From NCBI RefSeq assembly GCF_013122565.1, contig NZ_CP053258.1: a DNA stretch of 64,000 bases; one strand, given 5' to 3'. Shown piece after piece: positions 13,482 through 25,706 of the stretch; the stretch's first letter is position 1; each line of letters opens with the position of its first letter. The notes beneath the pieces were generated by a model. That model was not told the origin of the DNA. It worked only from the letters and a program-made list of their open reading frames with translations, and ran no database searches. This DNA comes from Escherichia coli (GTDB taxonomy: Bacteria; Pseudomonadota; Gammaproteobacteria; Enterobacterales; Enterobacteriaceae). The translations under genes and the position numbers were made by a program.

Positions 13482-14153
13482 ATGCAGTACCCGATTAACG
13501 AGATGTTCCAGACCCTGCAAGGTGAGGGTTACTTTACCGGCGTCCCCGCCATTTTTATTCGTTTACAGGGATGCCCGGTTGGCTGTGCCTGGTGCGACAC
13601 CAAACACACCTGGGAAAAGCTTGAGGATCGGGAAGTCTCCCTTTTCAGCATTCTGGCGAAGACCAAAGAGAGTGATAAGTGGGGGGCGGCGAGCAGTGAA
13701 GACTTGCTGGCTGTCATTGGTCGCCAGGGATATACCGCGCGGCATGTGGTGATTACGGGGGGTGAGCCTTGCATTCATGATTTGCTGCCACTGACTGACC
13801 TGCTCGAAAAGAACGGTTTTAGCTGCCAGATCGAAACCAGTGGTACTCATGAAGTACGCTGTACACCGAATACCTGGGTTACCGTATCGCCAAAGCTGAA
13901 CATGCGCGGCGGCTATGAAGTGTTGTCACAGGCACTGGAGCGAGCCAACGAAATCAAGCATCCAGTGGGACGCGTACGTGATATTGAAGCACTGGATGAA
14001 CTTTTGGCGACGCTGACCGATGATAAACCGCGAGTCATTGCACTGCAGCCGATTAGCCAAAAGGATGATGCCACACGTTTGTGCATTGAAACCTGCATTG
14101 CGCGTAATTGGCGTTTGTCGATGCAAACCCATAAATATTTAAATATTGCCTGA
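13482..14153 (+). CDS. queE: 7-carboxy-7-deazaguanine synthase (radical SAM)
   Basis: 223 aa; CxxxCxxC-type cluster motif ([13 protein letters not shown]). Confidence 0.92.
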
Positions 14154-14160
14154 TTAAACA

Positions 14161-14490
14161 TTTATAAGTGTTATAAATGGGTGGAACCTGTAAAGAATTC
14201 CACTCATTTATATTGTTTGTCGCCTCTGAAAACCCCTCTTTTTTGCCCATCCTTGACTAATCATTATCATTCTCTACAAATTCTGTGGCGTTAATTTTTC
14301 GCTGGAGTGAAAATTATTGCGGTAAAGTTTGGTAGATTTTAGTTTGAATAGAGTTATTTTAAATATTTATCTTTTTAATCAATGGATTAAGTGCTCTTTA
14401 ACATAATGGATGTGTTGTTTGTGTGATCCTGTAAAGTTGTTAGATTGTGACTGGCTTAAAAAATCATTAATTAATAATAGGTTATGTTTA
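14161..14490 (+). promoter_or_regulatory. CRISPR leader (AT-rich), ending ...ctggcttaaaaaatcattaattaataataggttatgttta
   Basis: AT-rich block abutting the first repeat; the 3' end matches the E. coli type I-E leader terminus as I recall it. Confidence 0.7.
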
Positions 14491-14702
14491 GAGTTCCCCG
14501 CGCCAGCGGGGATAAACCGGCGATTATAGCGGACTTTCAAGAGAACAGTCTGAGTTCCCCGCGCCAGCGGGGATAAACCGTGGAAAATCACCGACAATAT
14601 TCGACATGGAGAGAGTTCCCCGCGCCAGCGAGGATAAACCGTTATCGGTCATCAACTATAGCGCGTATTTACTAAGTTCCCCGTTCCAACACGAATAATC
14701 CG
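14491..14702 (+). CDS. placeholder
   Basis: placeholder. Confidence 0.
14491..14702 (+). CRISPR. Type I-E CRISPR mini-array: 4 repeats (4th degenerate), 3 spacers of 32 bp
   Basis: Repeats GAGTTCCCCGCGCCAGCGGGGATAAACCG at 14491, 14552, 14613 (one G>A change) and a degenerate copy at 14674; AT-rich leader upstream. Confidence 0.93.
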
Positions 14703-14767
14703 ATAATATCGACGATACCAACCTAATATTATCAAATGTTAAAGGTTCTAATTTAAGAGGAAATTTA

Positions 14768-15031
14768 ATGTCTACGTTAATGGAAAAAGAATCTCTCCTG
14801 AATGGCGTGAGTCAAAATATTGCATTTTTATCAAATGTATCTGAAATGGTTTACAACTCTCAGAATGAAGAGTTGCAGTATGAAATATATGAGCTGGTGA
14901 GTTATAAAGATTATCTATACTCAACAGACCATGAACTTGTTGATTTTCAAGAGGGAGTATTACGATTTCAACAAATTAGAACAAAATACAGGCAAGAGCT
15001 AAAAGAACTCGGTTATCCTGTAGGTAATTAA
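14768..15031 (+). CDS. Hypothetical small protein (87 aa), no recognised family
   Basis: ORF preceded by AAGAGGA Shine-Dalgarno about 7 nt upstream of the ATG; AT-rich codon usage unlike flanking core genes. Confidence 0.5.
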   Translation: MSTLMEKESLLNGVSQNIAFLSNVSEMVYNSQNEELQYEIYELVSYKDYLYSTDHELVDFQEGVLRFQQIRTKYRQELKELGYPVGN

Positions 15032-15393
15032 GAAATATTGTCTTGATGGTGGGGAAACGTAATTTTTTATATTTTAAATATTAGATTAAAACAATAAATT
15101 AATATCATACTTTTATTTTATTCTCGAAAATGCCTAATTTCATTAAATACGTTGTCCTGTAAATGTAAACCGGGCATTTTTCCGCCCGGTCTCCCTCGAT
15201 TACGCTTCTGAGCAGGTCTCGAGCGAATTCACACTCTCCCGTTCAACTTGCATCACCAGTTGGTTAAATTCAGTCAAACTCTCGCTCATAATAATAATGT
15301 CGCAGTCGTCTTCCATGTCATGCCCCAGATATCCAGAACACAACACCCTAACATAGCGTTACTTAAGGGAAATTGACCGCCGACACACTCTTA

Positions 15394-15759
15394 TCATTCG
15401 CCGCGATAGATACAACCTGCGGTGCAGGTTTCTTTCACCATCACTGCACTTAATAGCGGCACAACGGGTTTAACCTGATCCCAAATCCATTTTGCTAAAA
15501 CTTCGCTGGTTGGGTTTTCCAGACCTGGAATATCATTGAGATAATGGTGATCGAGGCGCTCATAAGTTGGCTTAAACGCCGCTTTCAGTTCAGCGAAATC
15601 GATAATCCAGCCCGTATGCGGATCGACTTCCCCGGTAATTTCCAGTCGCACCATAAAGGAATGCCCGTGCAGGCGACCACATTTATGTCCTTCCGGGACG
15701 TGTGGTAAGCGGTGAGCGGCTTCGAAGGTGAAATCTTTAAATAACGTGGTGGACATCAT
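15394..15759 (-). CDS. queD: 6-carboxy-5,6,7,8-tetrahydropterin synthase
   Basis: ORF track 15394..15843; start at [19 protein letters not shown] gives about 121 aa; PTPS family with zinc-binding His motif. Confidence 0.9.
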
Positions 15760-16074
15760 AATTTCTCTACATGACGATAAAACCGCCGTAGAGTACCGGA
15801 AAGGCTGTTTTTTCGCATTATCTAAAACGACTTTGTTGCGCAAAATCGCTGATTTATCTTAATGATTGGCTAAATTCATTTGTTTTTCATTAGGTTGGTT
15901 AATCTATTTTGTTGTTAAAGACTATTGCTAAAACAGGTTAGTCGATTTGGTTATTAGTTATCGCTATCCCGTCTTTAATCCACACCGTTCACCCCGTTAA
16001 CCTTACCTTCTCTTCTGTTTTATGGGCGCTGACAGGGCGCAGAAACAGCTTTGCTTACTGGAACATAACGACGC

Positions 16075-17874
16075 ATGACGACACAGGTCCCACCTTCCGC
16101 GTTGCTTCCGTTGAACCCGGAGCAACTGGCACGCCTTCAGGCGGCCACGACCGATTTAACTCCCACCCAGCTTGCCTGGGTTTCTGGCTATTTCTGGGGC
16201 GTGCTCAATCAGCAGCCTGCTGCGCTTGCAGCGACGCCAGCGCCAGCCGCAGAAATGCCGGGTATAACTATTATCTCCGCCTCGCAAACTGGCAATGCGC
16301 GCCGGGTTGCTGAAGCATTACGCGATGATTTATTGACGGCAAAACTGAACGTTAAGCTGGTGAACGCGGGCGACTATAAATTCAAACAAATCGCCAGCGA
16401 AAAACTGCTCATCGTAGTGACGTCAACGCAAGGGGAAGGGGAACCGCCGGAAGAAGCCGTCGCGCTGCATAAGTTCCTGTTCTCCAAAAAAGCGCCAAAG
16501 CTGGAAAACACCGCGTTTGCCGTGTTTAGCCTCGGCGATAGCTCTTATGAATTTTTCTGCCAGTCCGGGAAAGATTTCGACAGCAAGCTGGCGGAACTGG
16601 GCGGTGAACGCCTGCTCGACCGTGTCGACGCCGACGTTGAATACCAGGCTGCTGCCAGCGAGTGGCGCGCCCGCGTGGTTGATGCGCTTAAATCGCGTGC
16701 GCCTGTCGCGGCACCTTCGCAATCCGTCTCTACTGGCGCGGTAAATGAAATCCACGCCAGCCCGTACAGCAAAGACGCGCCGCTGGTGGCGAGCCTCTCT
16801 GTTAACCAGAAAATTACCGGGCGTAACTCTGAAAAAGACGTTCGCCATATCGAAATTGACTTAGGTGACTCGGGCCTGCGTTACCAGCCGGGTGACGCGC
16901 TGGGCGTCTGGTATCAGAACGATCCGGCACTGGTGAAAGAACTTGTCGAACTGCTGTGGCTGAAAGGCGATGAACCTGTCACCGTCGAGGGCAAAACGTT
17001 GCCTCTGAACGAAGCGCTACAGTGGCACTTCGAACTGACCGTCAACACCGCCAACATTGTTGAGAATTACGCCACGCTTACCCGCAGTGAAACACTGCTG
17101 CCGCTGGTGGGCGATAAAGCGAAGTTACAGCATTACGCCGCGACCACGCCGATTGTCGACATGGTGCGTTTCTCTCCGGCGCAACTGGATGCCGAAGCGC
17201 TGATTAATCTGCTGCGTCCGCTGACCCCGCGCCTGTATTCCATCGCCTCCTCGCAGGCGGAAGTCGAGAACGAAGTACACGTCACCGTTGGTGTGGTGCG
17301 TTACGACGTGGAAGGCCGCGCCCGTGCCGGTGGTGCCTCCAGCTTCCTCGCGGATCGTGTGGAAGAAGAGGGCGAAGTCCGCGTATTTATCGAACATAAC
17401 GATAACTTCCGTTTGCCTGCTAACCCGGAAACCCCGGTGATTATGATTGGCCCCGGTACCGGCATCGCGCCGTTCCGTGCCTTTATGCAGCAACGCGCCG
17501 CCGACGAAGCGCCGGGTAAAAACTGGCTGTTCTTTGGCAACCCGCACTTTACGGAAGATTTCCTCTACCAGGTGGAGTGGCAGCGCTACGTCAAAGAGGG
17601 CGTGCTGACGCGTATCGATCTTGCCTGGTCGCGCGACCAAAAAGAAAAAGTTTATGTACAAGACAAACTGCGCGAACAGGGCGCGGAGCTGTGGCGCTGG
17701 ATCAATGACGGTGCCCACATTTATGTCTGCGGCGACGCTAATCGCATGGCGAAAGACGTTGAGCAGGCACTTCTGGAAGTGATTGCCGAATTTGGTGGCA
17801 TGGACACCGAAGCGGCGGATGAATTTTTAAGTGAGCTGCGCGTAGAGCGCCGTTATCAGCGAGATGTCTACTAA
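16075..17874 (+). CDS. cysJ: Sulfite reductase [NADPH] flavoprotein alpha subunit
   Basis: 599 aa; flavodoxin plus FAD/NADPH reductase domains. Confidence 0.96.
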
Positions 17875-19586
17875 TGAGCAAAAAACATCCAGGGCCTTTA
17901 GTGGTCGAAGGAAAACTGACAGACGCCGAGCGCATGAAGCTTGAAAGCAACTACCTGCGCGGCACCATTGCGGAAGATTTAAACGACGGTCTGACCGGCG
18001 GCTTTAAGGGCGACAACTTCCTGCTGATCCGCTTCCACGGCATGTATCAGCAGGATGACCGCGACATCCGCGCCGAACGTGCTGAACAGAAGCTGGAGCC
18101 GCGCCACGCGATGCTGCTTCGCTGTCGTCTGCCGGGTGGGGTGATTACCACTAAACAGTGGCAGGCGATCGACAAATTTGCCGGTGAAAACACCATCTAT
18201 GGCAGCATTCGCCTGACCAACCGCCAGACGTTTCAGTTCCACGGCATTCTGAAAAAGAACGTCAAACCGGTGCACCAGATGCTGCACTCGGTCGGTCTTG
18301 ATGCGCTGGCGACCGCTAACGACATGAACCGTAACGTACTCTGCACCTCGAACCCTTACGAGTCGCAGCTGCACGCGGAAGCATATGAATGGGCGAAGAA
18401 AATCTCTGAACATCTGCTGCCGCGTACTCGCGCGTATGCGGAGATCTGGCTCGATCAGGAAAAAGTCGCCACCACTGATGAAGAGCCGATCCTTGGTCAG
18501 ACCTACCTGCCGCGTAAGTTCAAAACCACGGTAGTGATCCCGCCGCAGAACGATATCGATCTGCACGCCAACGACATGAACTTCGTGGCGATCGCCGAAA
18601 ACGGCAAGCTGGTGGGCTTTAACCTGCTGGTGGGCGGTGGGCTTTCTATCGAACACGGCAACAAGAAAACCTACGCCCGCACGGCGAGTGAGTTTGGCTA
18701 TCTGCCGCTAGAACATACGCTGGCGGTGGCGGAAGCCGTCGTGACAACTCAGCGTGACTGGGGTAACCGAACCGATCGTAAAAATGCCAAAACCAAATAC
18801 ACGCTGGAGCGCGTGGGGGTTGAGACGTTTAAAGCGGAAGTGGAGCGTCGCGCGGGGATCAAATTTGAACCGATCCGTCCGTATGAGTTCACCGGACGCG
18901 GCGATCGTATTGGCTGGGTTAAGGGCATTGATGATAACTGGCACCTGACGCTGTTTATCGAAAATGGTCGCATCCTTGATTATCCGGGGCGTCCGCTGAA
19001 AACTGGCCTGCTGGAGATCGCGAAGATCCACAAAGGTGATTTCCGCATTACGGCGAACCAGAATTTGATCATCGCCGGTGTGCCGGAAAGTGAGAAAGCG
19101 AAGATCGAGAAGATCGCCAAAGAGAGCGGGTTAATGAATGCCGTCACGCCGCAGCGTGAAAACTCAATGGCCTGCGTGTCATTCCCGACTTGCCCGCTGG
19201 CGATGGCGGAAGCAGAGCGTTTCCTGCCGTCTTTTATCGACAACATCGACAATTTAATGGCGAAACATGGTGTCAGCGATGAGCATATCGTGATGCGTGT
19301 AACAGGCTGCCCGAACGGTTGTGGTCGCGCGATGCTGGCGGAAGTGGGCCTGGTGGGTAAAGCGCCGGGTCGCTACAACCTGCATCTTGGCGGCAACCGC
19401 ATTGGGACACGTATCCCACGGATGTATAAAGAAAACATCACCGAGCCGGAAATCCTGGCGTCGCTTGATGAACTGATAGGGCGCTGGGCGAAAGAGCGCG
19501 AAGCGGGTGAAGGCTTCGGCGACTTTACGGTGCGTGCGGGCATCATTCGCCCGGTGCTCGATCCGGCGCGCGATTTGTGGGATTAA
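17874..19586 (+). CDS. cysI: Sulfite reductase [NADPH] hemoprotein beta subunit
   Basis: 570 aa; overlaps the cysJ stop (ATGA); siroheme/Fe-S Cys motifs. Confidence 0.96.
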
Positions 19587-19602
19587 CCATCAGCCCGGTC
19601 TT

Positions 19603-19638
19603 GTAGGCCTGATAAGACGCGTGAGCGTCGCATCAGGC
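19603..19638. repeat. REP element between cysI and cysH
   Basis: gtaggcctgataagacgcgtgagcgtcgcatcaggc, a REP variant. Confidence 0.65.
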
Positions 19639-19659
19639 AAGGCAAACAGTGAGGAATCT

Positions 19660-20394
19660 ATGTCCAAACTCGATCTAAACGCCCTGAACGAACTGCCGAA
19701 GGTAGATCGCATTCTGGCGCTGGCGGAAACTAACGCCCAACTGGAAAAACTGGATGCTGAAGGCCGCGTTGCCTGGGCGCTGGATAATCTGCCCGGTGAA
19801 TATGTACTTTCTTCCAGCTTTGGTATTCAGGCGGCGGTGAGCCTGCATCTGGTGAATCAGATTCGGCCGGATATTCCAGTGATCCTCACCGATACCGGTT
19901 ATCTGTTCCCGGAAACCTACCGCTTTATTGACGAGTTAACGGACAAACTCAAGCTCAACCTGAAAGTGTACCGTGCTACCGAAAGCGCCGCCTGGCAGGA
20001 AGCACGCTACGGCAAACTGTGGGAGCAGGGCGTTGAAGGCATTGAAAAGTACAATGACATCAACAAAGTCGAACCGATGAACCGGGCGCTGAAAGAACTG
20101 AATGCGCAAACGTGGTTTGCTGGCCTGCGCCGTGAACAATCCGGCAGCCGCGCCAATTTACCGGTGCTGGCAATTCAGCGTGGCGTATTTAAAGTACTGC
20201 CGATTATCGATTGGGATAACCGAACGATATATCAGTATCTGCAAAAGCATGGCCTGAAATATCACCCATTATGGGACGAAGGATATTTATCGGTCGGTGA
20301 TACCCATACAACCCGTAAATGGGAACCCGGCATGGCGGAAGAAGAAACACGTTTCTTTGGTTTAAAAAGGGAGTGTGGGTTACACGAAGGGTAA
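19660..20394 (+). CDS. cysH: Phosphoadenosine phosphosulfate (PAPS) reductase
   Basis: ORF track 19507..20394; ATG at 19660 gives 244 aa [19 protein letters not shown]... Confidence 0.94.
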
Positions 20395-20560
20395 ATATTG
20401 CCGGATAAATTAAACGCCTCTGTCAGAAATGATGGGGGCGTTTTTATTTTGCGAGCAGCATTCCTGATTTTAAACGTGAACGCCGCTGGAAGAATTATCA
20501 GGTATAGAATGGCGTCGGGTGCTTGAGGCTGTCTGGCGTTAAGCATTCGCGAGGTTCCAG

Positions 20561-20665
20561 ATGGACAAAAGCCCCAGGCGATATTTCTATCAACCTGAGG
20601 CTTACGTTCGAACCCAAACAATTCGAATGTTAGTCTCTTCTTTGCAGGGAGGCAAGACATGCTGA
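20561..20665 (+). CDS. mok-like leader ORF overlapping the hok start
   Basis: 34-codon ORF whose TGA overlaps the hok ATG (ATGCTGA) in another frame, the arrangement typical of hok/mok loci. Confidence 0.3.
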
Positions 20666-20811
20666 CAAAATATGCCCTTGTGGCAATCATCGTACTGTGT
20701 TGTACAGTACTGGGATTCACGCTGATGGTAGGCGACTCGTTGTGTGAGTTGAGTATCAGAGAACGTGGTATGGAGTTTAAGGCAGTTCTCGCTTACGAAT
20801 CGAAGAAGTAG
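20659..20811 (+). CDS. Hok/Gef-family type I toxin (50 aa small membrane protein)
   Basis: Hand translation [50 protein letters not shown] has the Hok pattern (TM helix, then L-C-E-hydrophobic, then a conserved AYES-type C-terminus); absent from the ORF track because under 60 aa. Confidence 0.75.
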
Positions 20812-20815
20812 CCAC

Positions 20816-20876
20816 CACGCGGGGGTAAAACCCCGCGTACTGAATTGTGATGGTTTGGTCTCCTGCACCCTTTTTT
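20816..20876 (+). terminator. hok 3' stem-loop and T-run
   Basis: cacgcggggg-taaaa-ccccgcgt hairpin just after the stop, then ...caccctttttt. Confidence 0.5.
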
Positions 20877-21048
20877 AATTTATATTATTTATGTGAGTAT
20901 TATGCCTATGTTTATTATTTATATATATTACGGATGAAAATCATTTAATTATTCACAATGTAAATATTTTATTGAAAGATATATGTCACAGATAATTTTT
21001 AATATGTGCGTAAATATCCTTTAAGTTTTACTGAAGGATAAAAATATT

Positions 21049-22392
21049 GTGACTTTCTTTGATTTCTGGGGAAAAACCCGACGTGGCGAGAAAGAAGGGG
21101 GCGACGGCTATCACCTTCTTTGCTGGCATTCGCTGGATGTGGCCGCGATGGGCTATTTAATGGTTAAAAGAAATTGCTTCGGGCTGGCTGACTATTTTCG
21201 TCAATTAGGGATTTCTGACAAGGAACAGGCAGCTCAATTTTTCGCCTGGTTGCTGTGCTGGCACGATATTGGAAAATTTGCCCGCTCTTTTCAACAACTT
21301 TACCTGCCCCCTGAATTCAAGATTCAGGAAGGTGCCAGAAAAAATTACGAAAAAATCTCTCATTCAACGCTGGGCTACTGGTTGTGGAATCATTATTTAA
21401 GTGAATGTCAGGAGTTACTTCCTTCATCTTCGCTCTCTCCGCGCAAACTTAGGCGAGTGATAGAAATGTGGATGCCCGTGACGACAGGGCATCATGGTCG
21501 GCCCCCTGATCGTATGGATGAATTGGATAATTTTCTGCCTGAAGACAAAGCTGCAGCACGAGATTTTCTCCTTGAAATCAAACCACTGTTTCCGCTCATA
21601 GAGATCCCCGCATTCTGGGATGATGATGAGGGCATTGAACTTATAAAACACCTTTCCTGGTATATCTCTGCAACCGTCGTGCTCGCAGACTGGACGGGTT
21701 CGTCAACGCGATTTTTTCCACGCGTCGCACACCCAATGGATATTAAAGGTTACTGGCAGAAAACTTTAGTTCAGGCTCAAAATGCCTTAACCGTCTTTCC
21801 TCTAAAAGCAAAAGTCGCGCCTTTCACCGGAATTAATACGCTGTTTCCTTTTATTGAGAATCCGACACCGTTACAGCAAAAGGTGCTGGATCTGGATATC
21901 AGCCAGCCAGGGCCACAGTTATTTATTCTGGAAGATGTGACTGGCGCAGGTAAAACGGAAGCGGCGCTTATCCTGGCGCACAGGTTGATGGCTGCGGGTA
22001 AAGCGCAGGGTTTGTTTTTTGGCCTGCCAACAATGGCAACGGCCAATGCCATGTATGATCGGCTCGTCAAAACCTGGCTTTCTTTCTATTCGCCAGAATC
22101 TCGCCCCAGCCTGGTGCTGGCACACAGTGCCCGCACATTAATGGACCGCTTTAATGAATCACTCTGGTCCGGTGATTTAATCGGGTCAGAAGAACCGGAT
22201 GAACAAGCTTTCAGCCAGGGTTGTGCGGCCTGGTTTGCCGACAGTAACAAGAAGGCGTTGCTGGCTGAAATTGGCGTCGGCACCCTGGATCAGGCGATGA
22301 TGGCAGTGATGCCGTTTAAACATAATAATCTGCGGCTTCTGGGGCTGAGTAACAAAATCGTGTTCCCCGCGCCAGCGGGGATAAACCGATGA
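21049..22392 (+). pseudogene. cas3: Truncated cas3 (type I-E): HD nuclease domain and helicase motif I only, reading through into the first CRISPR repeat
   Basis: 447-codon ORF with GTG start; HD motif (HSLDV..WHDIGK) and Walker A (DVTGAGKTEA); the frame ends ...[18 protein letters not shown], where the last residues are translated repeat; no DExH motif II or C-terminal domain. Confidence 0.8.
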
Positions 22393-24586
22393 ATATTTGC
22401 GAATATTCGGCAGAAAGCGGGTGTTCCCCGCGCCAGCGGGGATAAACCGAGGTTGCGGCACAAATTGAGGTTGTCGCAAATGTGTTCCCCGCGCCAGCGG
22501 GGATAAACCGCCGACGCAGCAGCGGCAGCAGCGGCAGCAGCGGTGTTCCCCGCGCCAGCGGGGATAAACCGTGGATCAGTGCCGCGTTCTCTCTCCGTGT
22601 AATGTGTTCCCCGCGCCAGCGGGGATAAACCGATCGAGACGGGTACGCGTAAAGCCGAGCTGGCGTGTTCCCCGCGCCAGCGGGGATAAACCGCGATCGG
22701 TTAATTCTTCTACCTGCCTTTGCAGGTGTTCCCCGCGCCAGCGGGGATAAACCGCCCGCAATGCATTCGGGCAGTTCCTTGCCGGGGTGTTCCCCGCGCC
22801 AGCGGGGATAAACCGGAGATTGAGCCAGACGCCCGCCAGGTGTTACTGTGTTCCCCGCGCCAGCGGGGATAAACCGGAAGTAACACACCCAACCCAGGTT
22901 GCGCCAGAGTGTTCCCCGCGCCAGCGGGGATAAACCGCCTGTTTGAGCAGGCGCGAATGAACCGGACCAGTGTTCCCCGCGCCAGCGGGGATAAACCGTC
23001 AGGTAAGCCAGTGTTAGGGGCAATATAGCAGTGTTCCCCGCGCCAGCGGGGATAAACCGTCATCGGCTCGTTATTTGTAGCCAGCACTACGGTGTTCCCC
23101 GCGCCAGCGGGGATAAACCGCTTTATCAGATGGTAAAGGTGAATCAATATGAGTGTTCCCCGCGCCAGCGGGGATAAACCGATACCCCAGCGTTTCGTTA
23201 TATGACGGAAGATGTGTTCCCCGCGCCAGCGGGGATAAACCGTGCAACCAGGACGGCAGGACGCATCGCCAGATGTGTTCCCCGCGCCAGCGGGGATAAA
23301 CCGCACGTTATTATCCGATATTCACCGATAAGCGTGTGTTCCCCGCGCCAGCGGGGATAAACCGTCTGGGCGTAAACAGTCGGATAAATCGCGGGTGTGT
23401 TCCCCGCGCCAGCGGGGATAAACCGGCGGCGTGTGGGGTAACAATCAGGGAGAGAAAGTGTTCCCCGCGCCAGCGGGGATAAACCGGATAAATACAGTAT
23501 ATTCCCGCGCTCTGCTGGCGTGTTCCCCGCGCCAGCGGGGATAAACCGTAGATTTTGTCCGGCTCAGGTGCGCCGATGGTGTGTTCCCCGCGCCAGCGGG
23601 GATAAACCGATCGAGTACAACAAAAAATATACTGAGTGAGTGTGTTCCCCGCGCCAGCGGGGATAAACCGCTGTTTGCTCCTGCTGCTCATTTAGTGATT
23701 TAGTGTTCCCCGCGCCAGCGGGGATAAACCGCCTGTTCTTTTTTAGTCAACTTAACCATGCTCGTGTTCCCCGCGCCAGCGGGGATAAACCGTCTTTTTC
23801 GAGACTTGCAGCAACGCTCTGAAAGTGTTCCCCGCGCCAGCGGGGATAAACCGATCGAGTAGTTTTGAGGGTTGGTGAATTCAGGGTGTTCCCCGCGCCA
23901 GCGGGGATAAACCGCTTAATAAATGGACTTAAGCGCCCAGTATTGGGTGTTCCCCGCGCCAGCGGGGATAAACCGGGGAGGGCGAGCCGCCGTAGGTGCG
24001 GTGAGGGGTGTTCCCCGCGCCAGCGGGGATAAACCGACGCAGAAACTGGTTGAAATAGTTTACGGTGAGTGTTCCCCGCGCCAGCGGGGATAAACCGGCA
24101 GTAAATTATTTGACCTCGTTGATAATCCCGTGTTCCCCGCGCCAGCGGGGATAAACCGGTGGCGGTGTGATTGTGGGACTTATTGCCATCGTGTTCCCCG
24201 CGCCAGCGGGGATAAACCGGGCCTTTTCAGCAGATTAACCGCCGCGATTGCGTGTTCCCCGCGCCAGCGGGGATAAACCGAGAGATTTATATTCTTTCAA
24301 ACCGGATTATATCGTGTTCCCCGCGCCAGCGGGGATAAACCGCTTCAAGAATTTTTAAACGCTGGCTTCAAAATGTGTTCCCCGCGCCAGCGGGGATAAA
24401 CCGTCCCACGCGTGCCAGATGGCGCGTTTGATGGCGTGTTCCCCGCGCCAGCGGGGATAAACCGATGATAACGGCAAAGGGTACGCTACGTACAACGTGT
24501 TCCCCGCGCCAGCGGGGTTAAACTGTGATCCAGTGAGTACCGATCCGGGAACAACCGGTGTTCCTCGCATCAGCGGGGATAAACCG
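22360..24586 (+). CRISPR. Type I-E CRISPR array, 37 recognisable repeats and 36 spacers, no adjacent cas operon or leader
   Basis: 29-bp repeat GTGTTCCCCGCGCCAGCGGGGATAAACCG at 61-bp period from 22360; spacers 32 bp except two of 33 bp (after repeats 19 and 32); repeats 36 and 37 degenerate; a possible further decayed copy near 24619..24648. Confidence 0.97.
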
Positions 24587-24668
24587 GGTGCACTGGATGC
24601 GATGATGGATATCACTTGGCGTTCCCCCGCCCCTGCGGTAGAACTCCCAGCTCCCATTTTCAAACCCA

Positions 24669-25706
24669 TCAAGACGCCTTCGCCAACTCCTTCACCAGAG
24701 GTAGCATTATCCGCATAACGTCACGGCAGCGACGTTCTATTCTTCCAGGAAGTGCCTTATCAATATGCTGTTGATTATCCAGTCTTACGTCATGCCAGCT
24801 ATTTCCCGCAGGGAATGCGGCTGTTTTTGCGCGTTGCTGATAACCATCCTTATTCCCAAGATTCCAGTTAGTCGCTTCCACCGAAAGTACAGCAATGCCC
24901 GCTTTGTCGAATATTTCGGCGTCATTACAACATCCAGTGCCTTTCGGATAATTTTTATTCAAACCCGGATTGGTCGTTGCGGCAATTCCATGACTACGCG
25001 CAATTGCCAGCGCCCTGTCGCGCGTTAATTTCCTTACTGCTTCAGGGGTTTTTACACCGCTGTTGAAATACAATTTATCGCCAACAATTAAGTTATCGAG
25101 ATTAATCACCAGCAGCGTATTTTTCTTTTCGGTGTCACTCATCCGCTTGAGTAAATTCTCAGCGCCTAATTTTCCTTCCTCTTCGCCGCTGGTCGCCACA
25201 AATCGAATACCATACTCGGTAGGCGTATTTTTCAGGCGTTCTGCCAGTTCCAGCATGACACCTAAACCTGCGGCGTTATCATCTATTCCTTGTAACGTCA
25301 GTCCGCCGAGATTGGCATCGGCGTCAGCATCGCTCAGCGGGGCGTAAGTATCCAGATGCGCCATAATGATGATCTGCTGCGGCGCTTTGCCTTCATGAGC
25401 GGCAATCACCGTACTTCCCGTCACGTTATGCCAGCTCTTACGATTATCGCGGGCGGTATAAATATATCGACTATTAAATGTCCGAATATCACTGCGATAA
25501 CCCATTTGCTGAAACTGTTGGCGAATATAATCGGCAGATAACATTTCTGCAGGAGTTCCGGTCATGCGTCCCGGAAAGAAAGTAGCAATATGTCGTGCCT
25601 GGGTATTAGCAAAATCGCCAGGTTTAGGTGACGAGGCGTGTACGGGGAGAATAAAGCATACGCCGAGCGCCAGGGCAGCGGTACGGTGGCGCAATGCGGA
25701 AAACAT
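24669..25706 (-). CDS. iap: Alkaline phosphatase isozyme conversion aminopeptidase
   Basis: 345 aa; signal peptide plus M28-type peptidase; adjacent to the distal end of the array as in E. coli. Confidence 0.93.
   Translation of the reverse strand: MFSALRHRTAALALGVCFILPVHASSPKPGDFANTQARHIATFFPGRMTGTPAEMLSADYIRQQFQQMGYRSDIRTFNSRYIYTARDNRKSWHNVTGSTVIAAHEGKAPQQIIIMAHLDTYAPLSDADADANLGGLTLQGIDDNAAGLGVMLELAERLKNTPTEYGIRFVATSGEEEGKLGAENLLKRMSDTEKKNTLLVINLDNLIVGDKLYFNSGVKTPEAVRKLTRDRALAIARSHGIAATTNPGLNKNYPKGTGCCNDAEIFDKAGIAVLSVEATNWNLGNKDGYQQRAKTAAFPAGNSWHDVRLDNQQHIDKALPGRIERRCRDVMRIMLPLVKELAKAS

Follow-up and report, generated by a model that had tools for sequence, protein, structure and literature searches.

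CRISPR arrays that stand without cas genes, and the loss of those genes, are usually explained by insertion sequence (IS) elements, autoimmunity or drift. Degraded type I-E loci that retain only a cas3 pseudogene have been described in Salmonella SL92 and SPB7 and in Shigella flexneri (Touchon & Rocha 2010, PMC2886076). In Escherichia coli, IS elements have been named as the cause of loss or replacement of the cas-E genes (Almendros et al. 2014, PMC3903273; BL21/REL606 in PMC2886076), and a hok-linked variant of the operon – cas-E1 / cas-EO – accompanies 'type A' GTGTT repeats (PMC3903273, PMC3737337). Here we describe a 64,000-nt stretch of E. coli DNA (contig NZ_CP053258.1 of assembly GCF_013122565.1; hereafter the window), in which CRISPR-I is a dead type I-E locus: a cas3 pseudogene is joined to a long array, and an 8-kb deletion has taken away the 3' half of cas3, casABCDE, cas1, cas2 and the leader. 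The join falls on the first base of a repeat, and the same is true of cas3 fusions in other E. coli genomes, in Shigella, in Salmonella and in further enterobacteria.

That base has a known place in spacer acquisition. In the first step of spacer insertion in E. coli the 3'-OH of the incoming DNA that is distal to the protospacer-adjacent motif (PAM) attacks the leader-repeat border and becomes linked to the 5' end of repeat 1, giving a half-site intermediate; this leader-side step places no sequence requirement on the incoming PAM-distal end. Breaks and spacer capture are known to concentrate in the region directly upstream of CRISPR-1, a hot spot bounded by Chi (PMC10011333).

Results

The cas operon and leader are missing from CRISPR-I

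An intact relative of the locus is present in E. coli E10 (locus L004), where the order is hok, cas3, casA, casB, cas7, cas5, cas6, cas1, cas2, a 96-nt leader, the array and iap. Relative to E10 the window lacks approximately 6.4 kb, from cas3 nt 1354 through the final base of the leader. Searches of the whole 64-kb window (tblastn and blastn, using casA, casB, cas5, cas6 and cas1 of E10 plus the entire casA-to-leader DNA) found no casA-E, no cas1 and no CRISPR-I leader, the sole match being the cas3 remnant (cas3'); cas2 is absent from the CRISPR-I locus, where cas3' abuts the array directly. There is no IS element at or near the junction: positions 20800-24700 carry no insert, and the colinearity of cas3 with E10 extends as far as the repeat. 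An earlier reading of this DNA from its letters (the sequence-only reading) had held that Cascade, cas1, cas2 and the leader were gone and that no IS element marked the junction, and both the window searches and inspection of the sequence bear this out. Its choice of the K-12 cas genes as comparator was mistaken: cas3 here is the hok-linked cas-E1 / cas-EO (O157-like) variant and not the K-12 gene, and it is with this variant that the locus is properly compared (PMC3903273). The reference operon of E10 is itself decaying (L004 19392-19470, 16012-17086): cas2 has TGA where Trp22 should be encoded, and the annotation of cas7 gives it a frameshift.

The cas3 remnant occupies an open reading frame (ORF) of 447 aa (21049-22392, plus strand). 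Residues 1-437 are colinear with, and 96% identical to, residues 15-451 of the 899-aa E10 Cas3; the last ten residues are translated repeat, and the frame ends at a TGA within spacer 1. The HD nuclease domain is complete (cas3_HD, TIGR01596: profile positions 1-178 of 178 over residues 24-219, 92.5 bits, cut-off 43.45) and helicase motif I (GAGKT) is kept, whereas of the helicase core only profile positions 2-126 of 358 are matched (TIGR01587, 60 bits against a cut-off of 102). The NCBIfam whole-protein model for type I-E Cas3 (NF007248) gives 210 bits, far short of its curated cut-off of 569. The break lies at E10 cas3 nt 1353 (codon 451), four codons 5' of the DExH box; from this point intact Cas3 goes on SNKI-LLADEIH. 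The 447-aa product is thus without a complete superfamily 2 (SF2) helicase core (motifs I-VI, including DExH) and without the C-terminal domain, and it is the product of a pseudogene, not a functional member of the Cas3 family. The cas3' portion is free of frameshifts and internal stops; exact look-ups of the 447-aa product returned no record. All of this agrees with the sequence-only reading, according to which cas3 was truncated before helicase motif II with its HD motifs and Walker A box intact, and ran at about codon 437 into the first repeat, so that its tail is translated repeat. The alignment to full-length Cas3, which places the break at residue 451 of 899, also shows that the product is not a complete protein of another family.

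The array comprises 37 repeats of 29 nt (22360-24586; GTGTTCCCCGCGCCAGCGGGGATAAACCG, the first base being at 22360), of which 35 are perfect, one carries two substitutions and one carries three: the earlier description of a 37-repeat orphan type I-E array with nearly all repeats perfect was accurate. The 37 spacers are 32 nt long, save two of 33 nt. The last of them (GGTGCACTGGATGCGATGATGGATATCACTTG) – a conserved ancestral spacer common to most CRISPR-I arrays fetched – and a degenerate terminal repeat (approximately 24619-24647) close the array, adjoining iap. Repeat, spacer length, position between cysH and iap, terminal repeat and last spacer all identify the array as E. coli CRISPR-I (CRISPR2.1), and related loci are annotated as CRISPR at this position.

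Among 5,426 complete RefSeq E. coli genomes, the top identity over the flanking core genes (8 kb) is 98.9%, and an array search of the same genomes found no intact ancestor sharing the leader-proximal spacers. The first 28 spacers of the window array are absent from the other arrays fetched. The loss of the cas genes is probably recent, because cas3' is undamaged, the array is long with 28 unshared leading spacers, the nearest relatives carry a different deletion (see below), and arrays shrink after cas loss (PMC2886076). The same had been supposed in the sequence-only reading, and on these grounds the supposition is plausible.

Independent cas3 fusions share the first base of the repeat

At the junction the final base of cas3 (...AACAAAATC) is followed immediately by repeat 1, from its base 1 onwards (GTGTTCCCC...), with 0 nt of microhomology. 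Short-read assemblies often break at CRISPR arrays, and the collapse of repeats might have caused a real cas operon and leader to be skipped. The junction, however, links repeat 1 to unique cas3 sequence and not to another repeat; a second assembly – a Logan assembly of SRR11451224 (contig L024), which is 100% identical to window positions 14554-22386 and possibly derives from the same isolate – spans it; and the same architecture recurs in many complete-level RefSeq assemblies of E. coli. An assembly artefact is therefore exceedingly improbable. The junction 36-mer has no match among the GTDB species representatives.

The window is one of 14 independent cas3'-repeat fusions, every one of which is at repeat base 1, with differing cas3 breakpoints (E10-equivalent nt 915, ~1084, 1092, ~1159, 1353, ~1358, 1470, 1555, 1569, 1671, 2046, ~2068, 2168 and 2459). 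Comparison with other E. coli genomes thus reveals the same type of junction at other positions in cas3, those at nt 1470, 1555, 1569, 1671, 2046, 2168 and 2459 being found in various complete genomes of the species. The nt 1092 fusion is that of Shigella flexneri; the fusions at nt ~1358 and ~2068 are from S. enterica subsp. arizonae and another Salmonella, respectively, and those at nt ~1084 and ~1159 from two other enterobacteria. The nt 915 fusion (...CCACAGTTA joined to GTGTTCCCC) occurs in L022 and L023 (16044-17450), with four spacers only. These are the closest relatives found of the window's strain (L022 being 99.2% identical over 17 kb), and they carry a deletion allele different from that of the window (nt 915 vs. 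nt 1353): two different base-exact deletions arose inside one narrow lineage.

Base 1 of the 61-nt repeat-spacer unit is used by 14 of the 15 cas-to-array junctions examined. So many at one position of 61 cannot be chance, and the array-side end of these deletions is site-specific, not random. In the ten E. coli and Shigella alleles that were compared with E10, microhomology with the repeat start and with the leader end alike amounts to 0-1 nt, which is the level of chance. A search for a motif shared by the fusions at their cas3 breakpoints found none, and clustering of the breakpoints is weak (1084/1092, 1353/1358, 1555/1569, 2046/2068). In the window and in L003, L010 and L015 – all long arrays – the junction repeat heads a run of spacers that are not shared with other fetched arrays, which fits the leader-proximal repeat.

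A truncated Salmonella Cas3 of 166 aa (P0189, 202 members) ends RFSPAG, resembling RFIPAG, which the repeat gives when read in reverse complement; either an inversion or a fusion to a repeat in inverted orientation may lie behind it.

If a leader-proximal spacer were acquired from cas3 itself, then RecA-type exchange between that spacer and its source would delete the interval: this homologous recombination between spacer and protospacer yields the same junction geometry and explains the leader-proximal position. Recombination between spacer and target is documented in staphylococci (Varble 2019, as related in PMC8616872), and in E. coli a link has been drawn between anti-cas spacers and the disappearance of I-F cas genes (PMC2886076, PMC8616872). 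A spacer so acquired should carry the mark of acquisition. The cas variant in question acquires beside AWG in 37 of 45 tested insertions, or ~82% (PMC3737337; the PAM is taken from that work because the two plasmid protospacers matched by the window array are too few to define one). Yet AWG stands 32 nt upstream of the junction in just one of the 14 alleles (the window has ATA): P(<=1/14) = 2.4e-9 under the expectation from acquisition, while the count fits random sequence. In addition, no spacer of any fetched CRISPR-I array matches the cas operon, allowing up to 7 mismatches, and 32 bp is – as is well established – near the lower limit for RecA-dependent exchange. We regard spacer-protospacer recombination as very unlikely; it would survive if only PAM-less self-spacers lasted long enough to recombine.

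Deletions inside the cas operon have different ends

The E1 locus is a hot spot of deletion. In addition to the repeat fusions we found deletions of cas3-cas2, casA-cas2, casB-cas2, cas3-cas6, cas3-cas1, cas3-cas7 and cas7-cas1, plus deletions internal to cas3 (loci L008, L009, L011, L013, L014, L016, L027 and L028; proteins P0003-P0101; positions are given in the coordinates of E10, L004). Almost all of these have microhomology of at least 2 nt, very often ending in TA (9 of 16 junctions). Breakpoints are reused with different partners: this holds for cas3+2037, cas3+1605, cas1+411, cas2 ~+69 and cas6 ~+30. The site at cas3+2037 (CAGTTA/AAG, the slash marking the break) has at least six partners and the cas2 site (TA/CTGGAAG) four to five, and three of the seven CAGTTA sites of the operon serve as breakpoints. 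IS ends, restriction sites, the preference of topoisomerase I for C at -4, sites of the IS200/605 type and PAMs were considered as the cause of the TA-ended hot spots; none was convincing.

The repeat fusions could likewise be the outcome of ordinary illegitimate recombination without Cas1-Cas2 – replication slippage, or end joining provoked by a hairpin – with the exact border being an accident of the palindromic repeat. That the same locus is full of other deletions not involving repeats speaks for this, as does the one array junction (EC596) that lies inside the repeat and shows 3-nt microhomology. However, nearly all the other deletions use at least 2 nt of microhomology while the cas3'-repeat fusions use none; the stem of the repeat, as read from its sequence, begins at base 6 and not at base 1, contrary to what a hairpin-provoked break predicts; and 14 of 15 junctions at one of 61 positions are incompatible with unguided breakage. 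Ordinary illegitimate events at the E1 locus thus appear unlike the repeat fusions, which have no microhomology and one defined base. The pattern of differing cas3 breakpoints, a constant repeat base 1, chance-level microhomology and AWG in one of 14 alleles argues against random illegitimate deletion as well as against spacer-protospacer recombination, and we consider ordinary illegitimate recombination unlikely. To the sequence-only reading the locus looked like an illegitimate deletion: a deletion without any IS element it is, but 'illegitimate' is too generic a term for an event whose array-side end is repeat base 1 in 14 alleles and is reached without microhomology.

Autoimmunity offers a further route, in which a self-targeting CRISPR RNA (crRNA) brings Cascade-Cas3 near the cas operon, degradation and repair follow, and the survivors are those that have lost interference. 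When type I systems target the chromosome, extensive deletions reportedly result and cells without cas genes are selected. In addition, several of the cas-internal deletions share a right end in cas2, at TA/CTGGAAG, which is 4 nt upstream of AAG and could be the footprint of bound Cascade. Against this, the CRISPR-I arrays examined contain no self-matching spacer, and degradation by Cas3 gives no reason for the end to fall on repeat base 1: it could supply the initiating break, and leaves the junction unexplained. As a full account of the fusions autoimmune deletion is decidedly unlikely; it fits better as a possible trigger upstream of the integrase-mediated deletion discussed below than as its replacement.

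Spacers and transcription of the orphan array

An array search of the phage collection found no protospacers, the only matches being to records that themselves contain CRISPR arrays. The corresponding search of plasmids gave two imperfect protospacers, with flanks ATG and ACG. They belong to the spacers at 23732-23763 and 24343-24374: one of the two matches Enterobacter plasmid pJBIWA008_2 (1 mismatch, flank ACG), and the other pRM9975-1, an IncFIB plasmid of E. coli (2 mismatches over an alignment of 33 nt that takes in the PAM-derived G, flank ATG). A further 61 plasmid records, all from Yersinia and not listed individually, match a portion of the array with 95-99% identity. Three of the 37 spacers (22633, 23610 and 23854) start with ATCGAG, two of them with ATCGAGTA, and are otherwise unrelated: this is above chance, and suggests repeated acquisition beside a conserved motif in related mobile elements. 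Spacer 3 (22511-22542) is of low complexity, with repeats of the GCAGCG type (CCGACGCAGCAGCGGCAGCAGCGGCAGCAGCG).

A scan for promoters and terminators over 20380-24760 gave no more sites than shuffled sequence, and is uninformative on transcription of the array. Untranslated arrays that lack leader-linked antitermination are prone to Rho termination (PMC7665894), and for this reason read-through from the cas3 promoter is expected to reach few spacers. A read-through transcript would have neither leader promoter nor Cas6e, as the sequence-only reading reasonably remarked, and the array and cas3 remnant are probably inert unless cas genes are provided in trans. From genes within the window the array can neither acquire spacers nor be processed. 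On the evidence of the 64-kb window, CRISPR-I gives no immunity alone, and its 37 spacers are a frozen record.

Surroundings of the locus

Between 19.6 and 25.7 kb of the window the order is cysH, hok/sok, an AT-rich intergenic region, cas3', the array and iap, the last on the minus strand (Table 1). The hok/sok module is identified by a match to sok (Rfam RF01794, 113 bits) that overlaps the 5' end of the Hok ORF. The ORF itself scores below the curated cut-offs of the NCBIfam Hok models (HokA, 53 vs. 89 bits; Hok family, 39.5 vs. 73).

Table 1. Coordinates of CRISPR-I, its flanking genes and CRISPR-II in the window.
Feature	Position	Strand	Basis
cysH (3'-phosphoadenosine-5'-phosphosulfate (PAPS) reductase), left flank of CRISPR-I	19660..20394 (start approximate)	+	ORF list; same position annotated in related loci
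hok/sok toxin-antitoxin module	20517..20811	+	sok match 20517-20674; hok ORF 20659-20811; Hok/Gef annotated at same position in related loci
cas3' remnant (type I-E, E1 variant), 5' 1311 nt	21049..22359	+	Alignment to E10 cas3; NCBIfam
Deletion junction cas3'/repeat 1	22359..22360	+	E10 alignment; Logan contig L024
Tail of chimeric ORF: repeat 1 translated, TGA stop in spacer 1	22360..22392	+	ORF translation
Orphan CRISPR-I (CRISPR2.1) array	22360..24647	+	Repeat/spacer parsing; without leader; same orientation as cas3
iap, right flank of CRISPR-I locus	24669..25706	-	ORF list
Second orphan array CRISPR-II, with leader	14392..14704	+	Repeats plus leader downstream of queE

A second array, CRISPR-II (14491-14704, downstream of queE), consists of three good GAGTTCCCC repeats and one degenerate repeat. 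Its leader is intact and includes a boxA-like TGCTCTTTAACA at 14392-14403 (for the role of boxA see PMC7665894); array and leader fall within 14150-14704. CRISPR-II lies outside the cas3'-array deletion, yet is part of the same cas-less system. The ~14-kb block ygcN...ygcE, which in E10 (L004) stands between CRISPR-II and queD/cysJ, is missing from the window (14705-15400), and because of its absence the two CRISPR arrays are only ~8 kb apart. In its place is an ORF of 87 aa (14768-15031), whose exact sequence occurs in few E. coli contigs only and whose cluster is mostly Escherichia fergusonii.

Discussion

Fourteen independent losses across genera obey one junction rule – repeat base 1, no microhomology, no PAM – and this points to a specific molecular cause. 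Two features fit strand transfer: the base-1 junction lies on the crRNA-sense strand in all 14 alleles, and there is no requirement for homology in the ten alleles in which this was assessed. A 3' end of the cas3 top strand linked to a repeat 5' end is also what the leader-side half-site reaction described for E. coli Cas1-Cas2 would produce (PMC10011333). We suggest that the base-1 fusions could well have arisen – a reading that we put somewhat short of probable – by leader-side strand transfer by Cas1-Cas2, or by end joining at the nick that it leaves. The array-side end would then be the leader-repeat border, the phosphodiester that Cas1-Cas2 attacks first. By the first of two possible routes a 3' end set free on the coding strand of cas3 (for example, the resected tail of a broken chromosome arm) would be joined to the 5' G of the repeat in place of a 33-nt prespacer; by the second, a break at the Cas1-Cas2 nick would be joined to a resected end in cas3. 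In either case replication or repair would subsequently lose everything between the two points, the integrase genes included. Loss of an active hok/sok locus is lethal: the module to the left of cas3 probably bounds leftward deletions, and this may be why left ends stop inside cas3.

Generalised, the proposal is of a recurrent enzyme-specific route in which the integrase joins a chromosomal 3' end, or leaves a nick, at the leader-repeat border, deletes its own operon and leaves long orphan arrays behind in Escherichia, Shigella, Salmonella and their relatives. This broader claim we advance tentatively, and with rather more doubt than conviction.

Several observations weigh against integrase-mediated deletion. 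The proposed mechanism is read from the anatomy of the junctions. EC596 (L007), the lone exception to the base-1 rule, has casA joined inside a repeat. In N17 and A20, both with short arrays, the joined repeat is one that in relatives lies near the distal end, and their arrays start with old distal spacers, which needs either later loss of spacers or integration at an internal repeat. In favour of the proposal, E10 has a properly oriented Chi at cas3+2531 and all cas3 breakpoints are upstream of it, but the sampling favours alleles that keep the 5' part of cas3, so that this pattern is not unbiased; left ends from casA to cas2 are likewise under-sampled by the searches. Finally, the triggering break may have its source in self-targeting by Cas3.

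As a separate observation, the sequence at the EC596 junction (L007 4268-4310) begins with ATAAACCG, the 8-nt 5' handle of the mature crRNA (the Cas6e cut site), which may be coincidence.

If integrase-mediated deletion is real, then a danger of deleting the very system that performs it is inherent in spacer acquisition, and models of how CRISPR is maintained, and of why active I-E systems are sparse and patchily distributed among enterobacteria, should take it into account. Loss of the cas operon with a cas3 pseudogene left in place is already known; the join at base 1 looks undescribed, in that a literature search (covering papers outside subscription-only journals) found no description of the base-1 junction rule or of integrase-mediated self-deletion.

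Comparison with described systems places the window as follows. Like the loci in which cas-E loss has been ascribed to IS elements, it has, at the same position, a leaderless and cas-less CRISPR2.1 array of 'type A' repeats; unlike them it carries no IS element, keeps the 5' half of cas3 together with hok/sok, and has a repeat border for its right end. In E. coli, orphan arrays of type I-F that carry anti-cas spacers (Almendros 2016, summarised in PMC8616872) resemble it in that the array outlives its cognate cas genes, and differ in that none of the 37 spacers of the window matches the I-E cas operon and there is no sign of an anti-cas role. With leader-side half-site integration by Cas1-Cas2 (PMC10011333) the junction shares the phosphodiester, the strand, the polarity and the absence of a sequence requirement at the PAM-distal end – a likeness that suggests how the deletion may come about – while the putative incoming strand is the chromosome and not a 33-nt prespacer, and there is no second strand transfer, no duplication of the repeat and no PAM. 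In the loci of Touchon & Rocha (PMC2886076), too, the cas operon is deleted and a cas3 remnant plus array, non-functional, remain between cysH and iap. The window differs in having an array that is unusually long for a cas-less locus (37 spacers) and a cas3 remnant without further decay. That work did not include an analysis of junctions; here its S. flexneri allele proves to have a junction of the same base-1 type.

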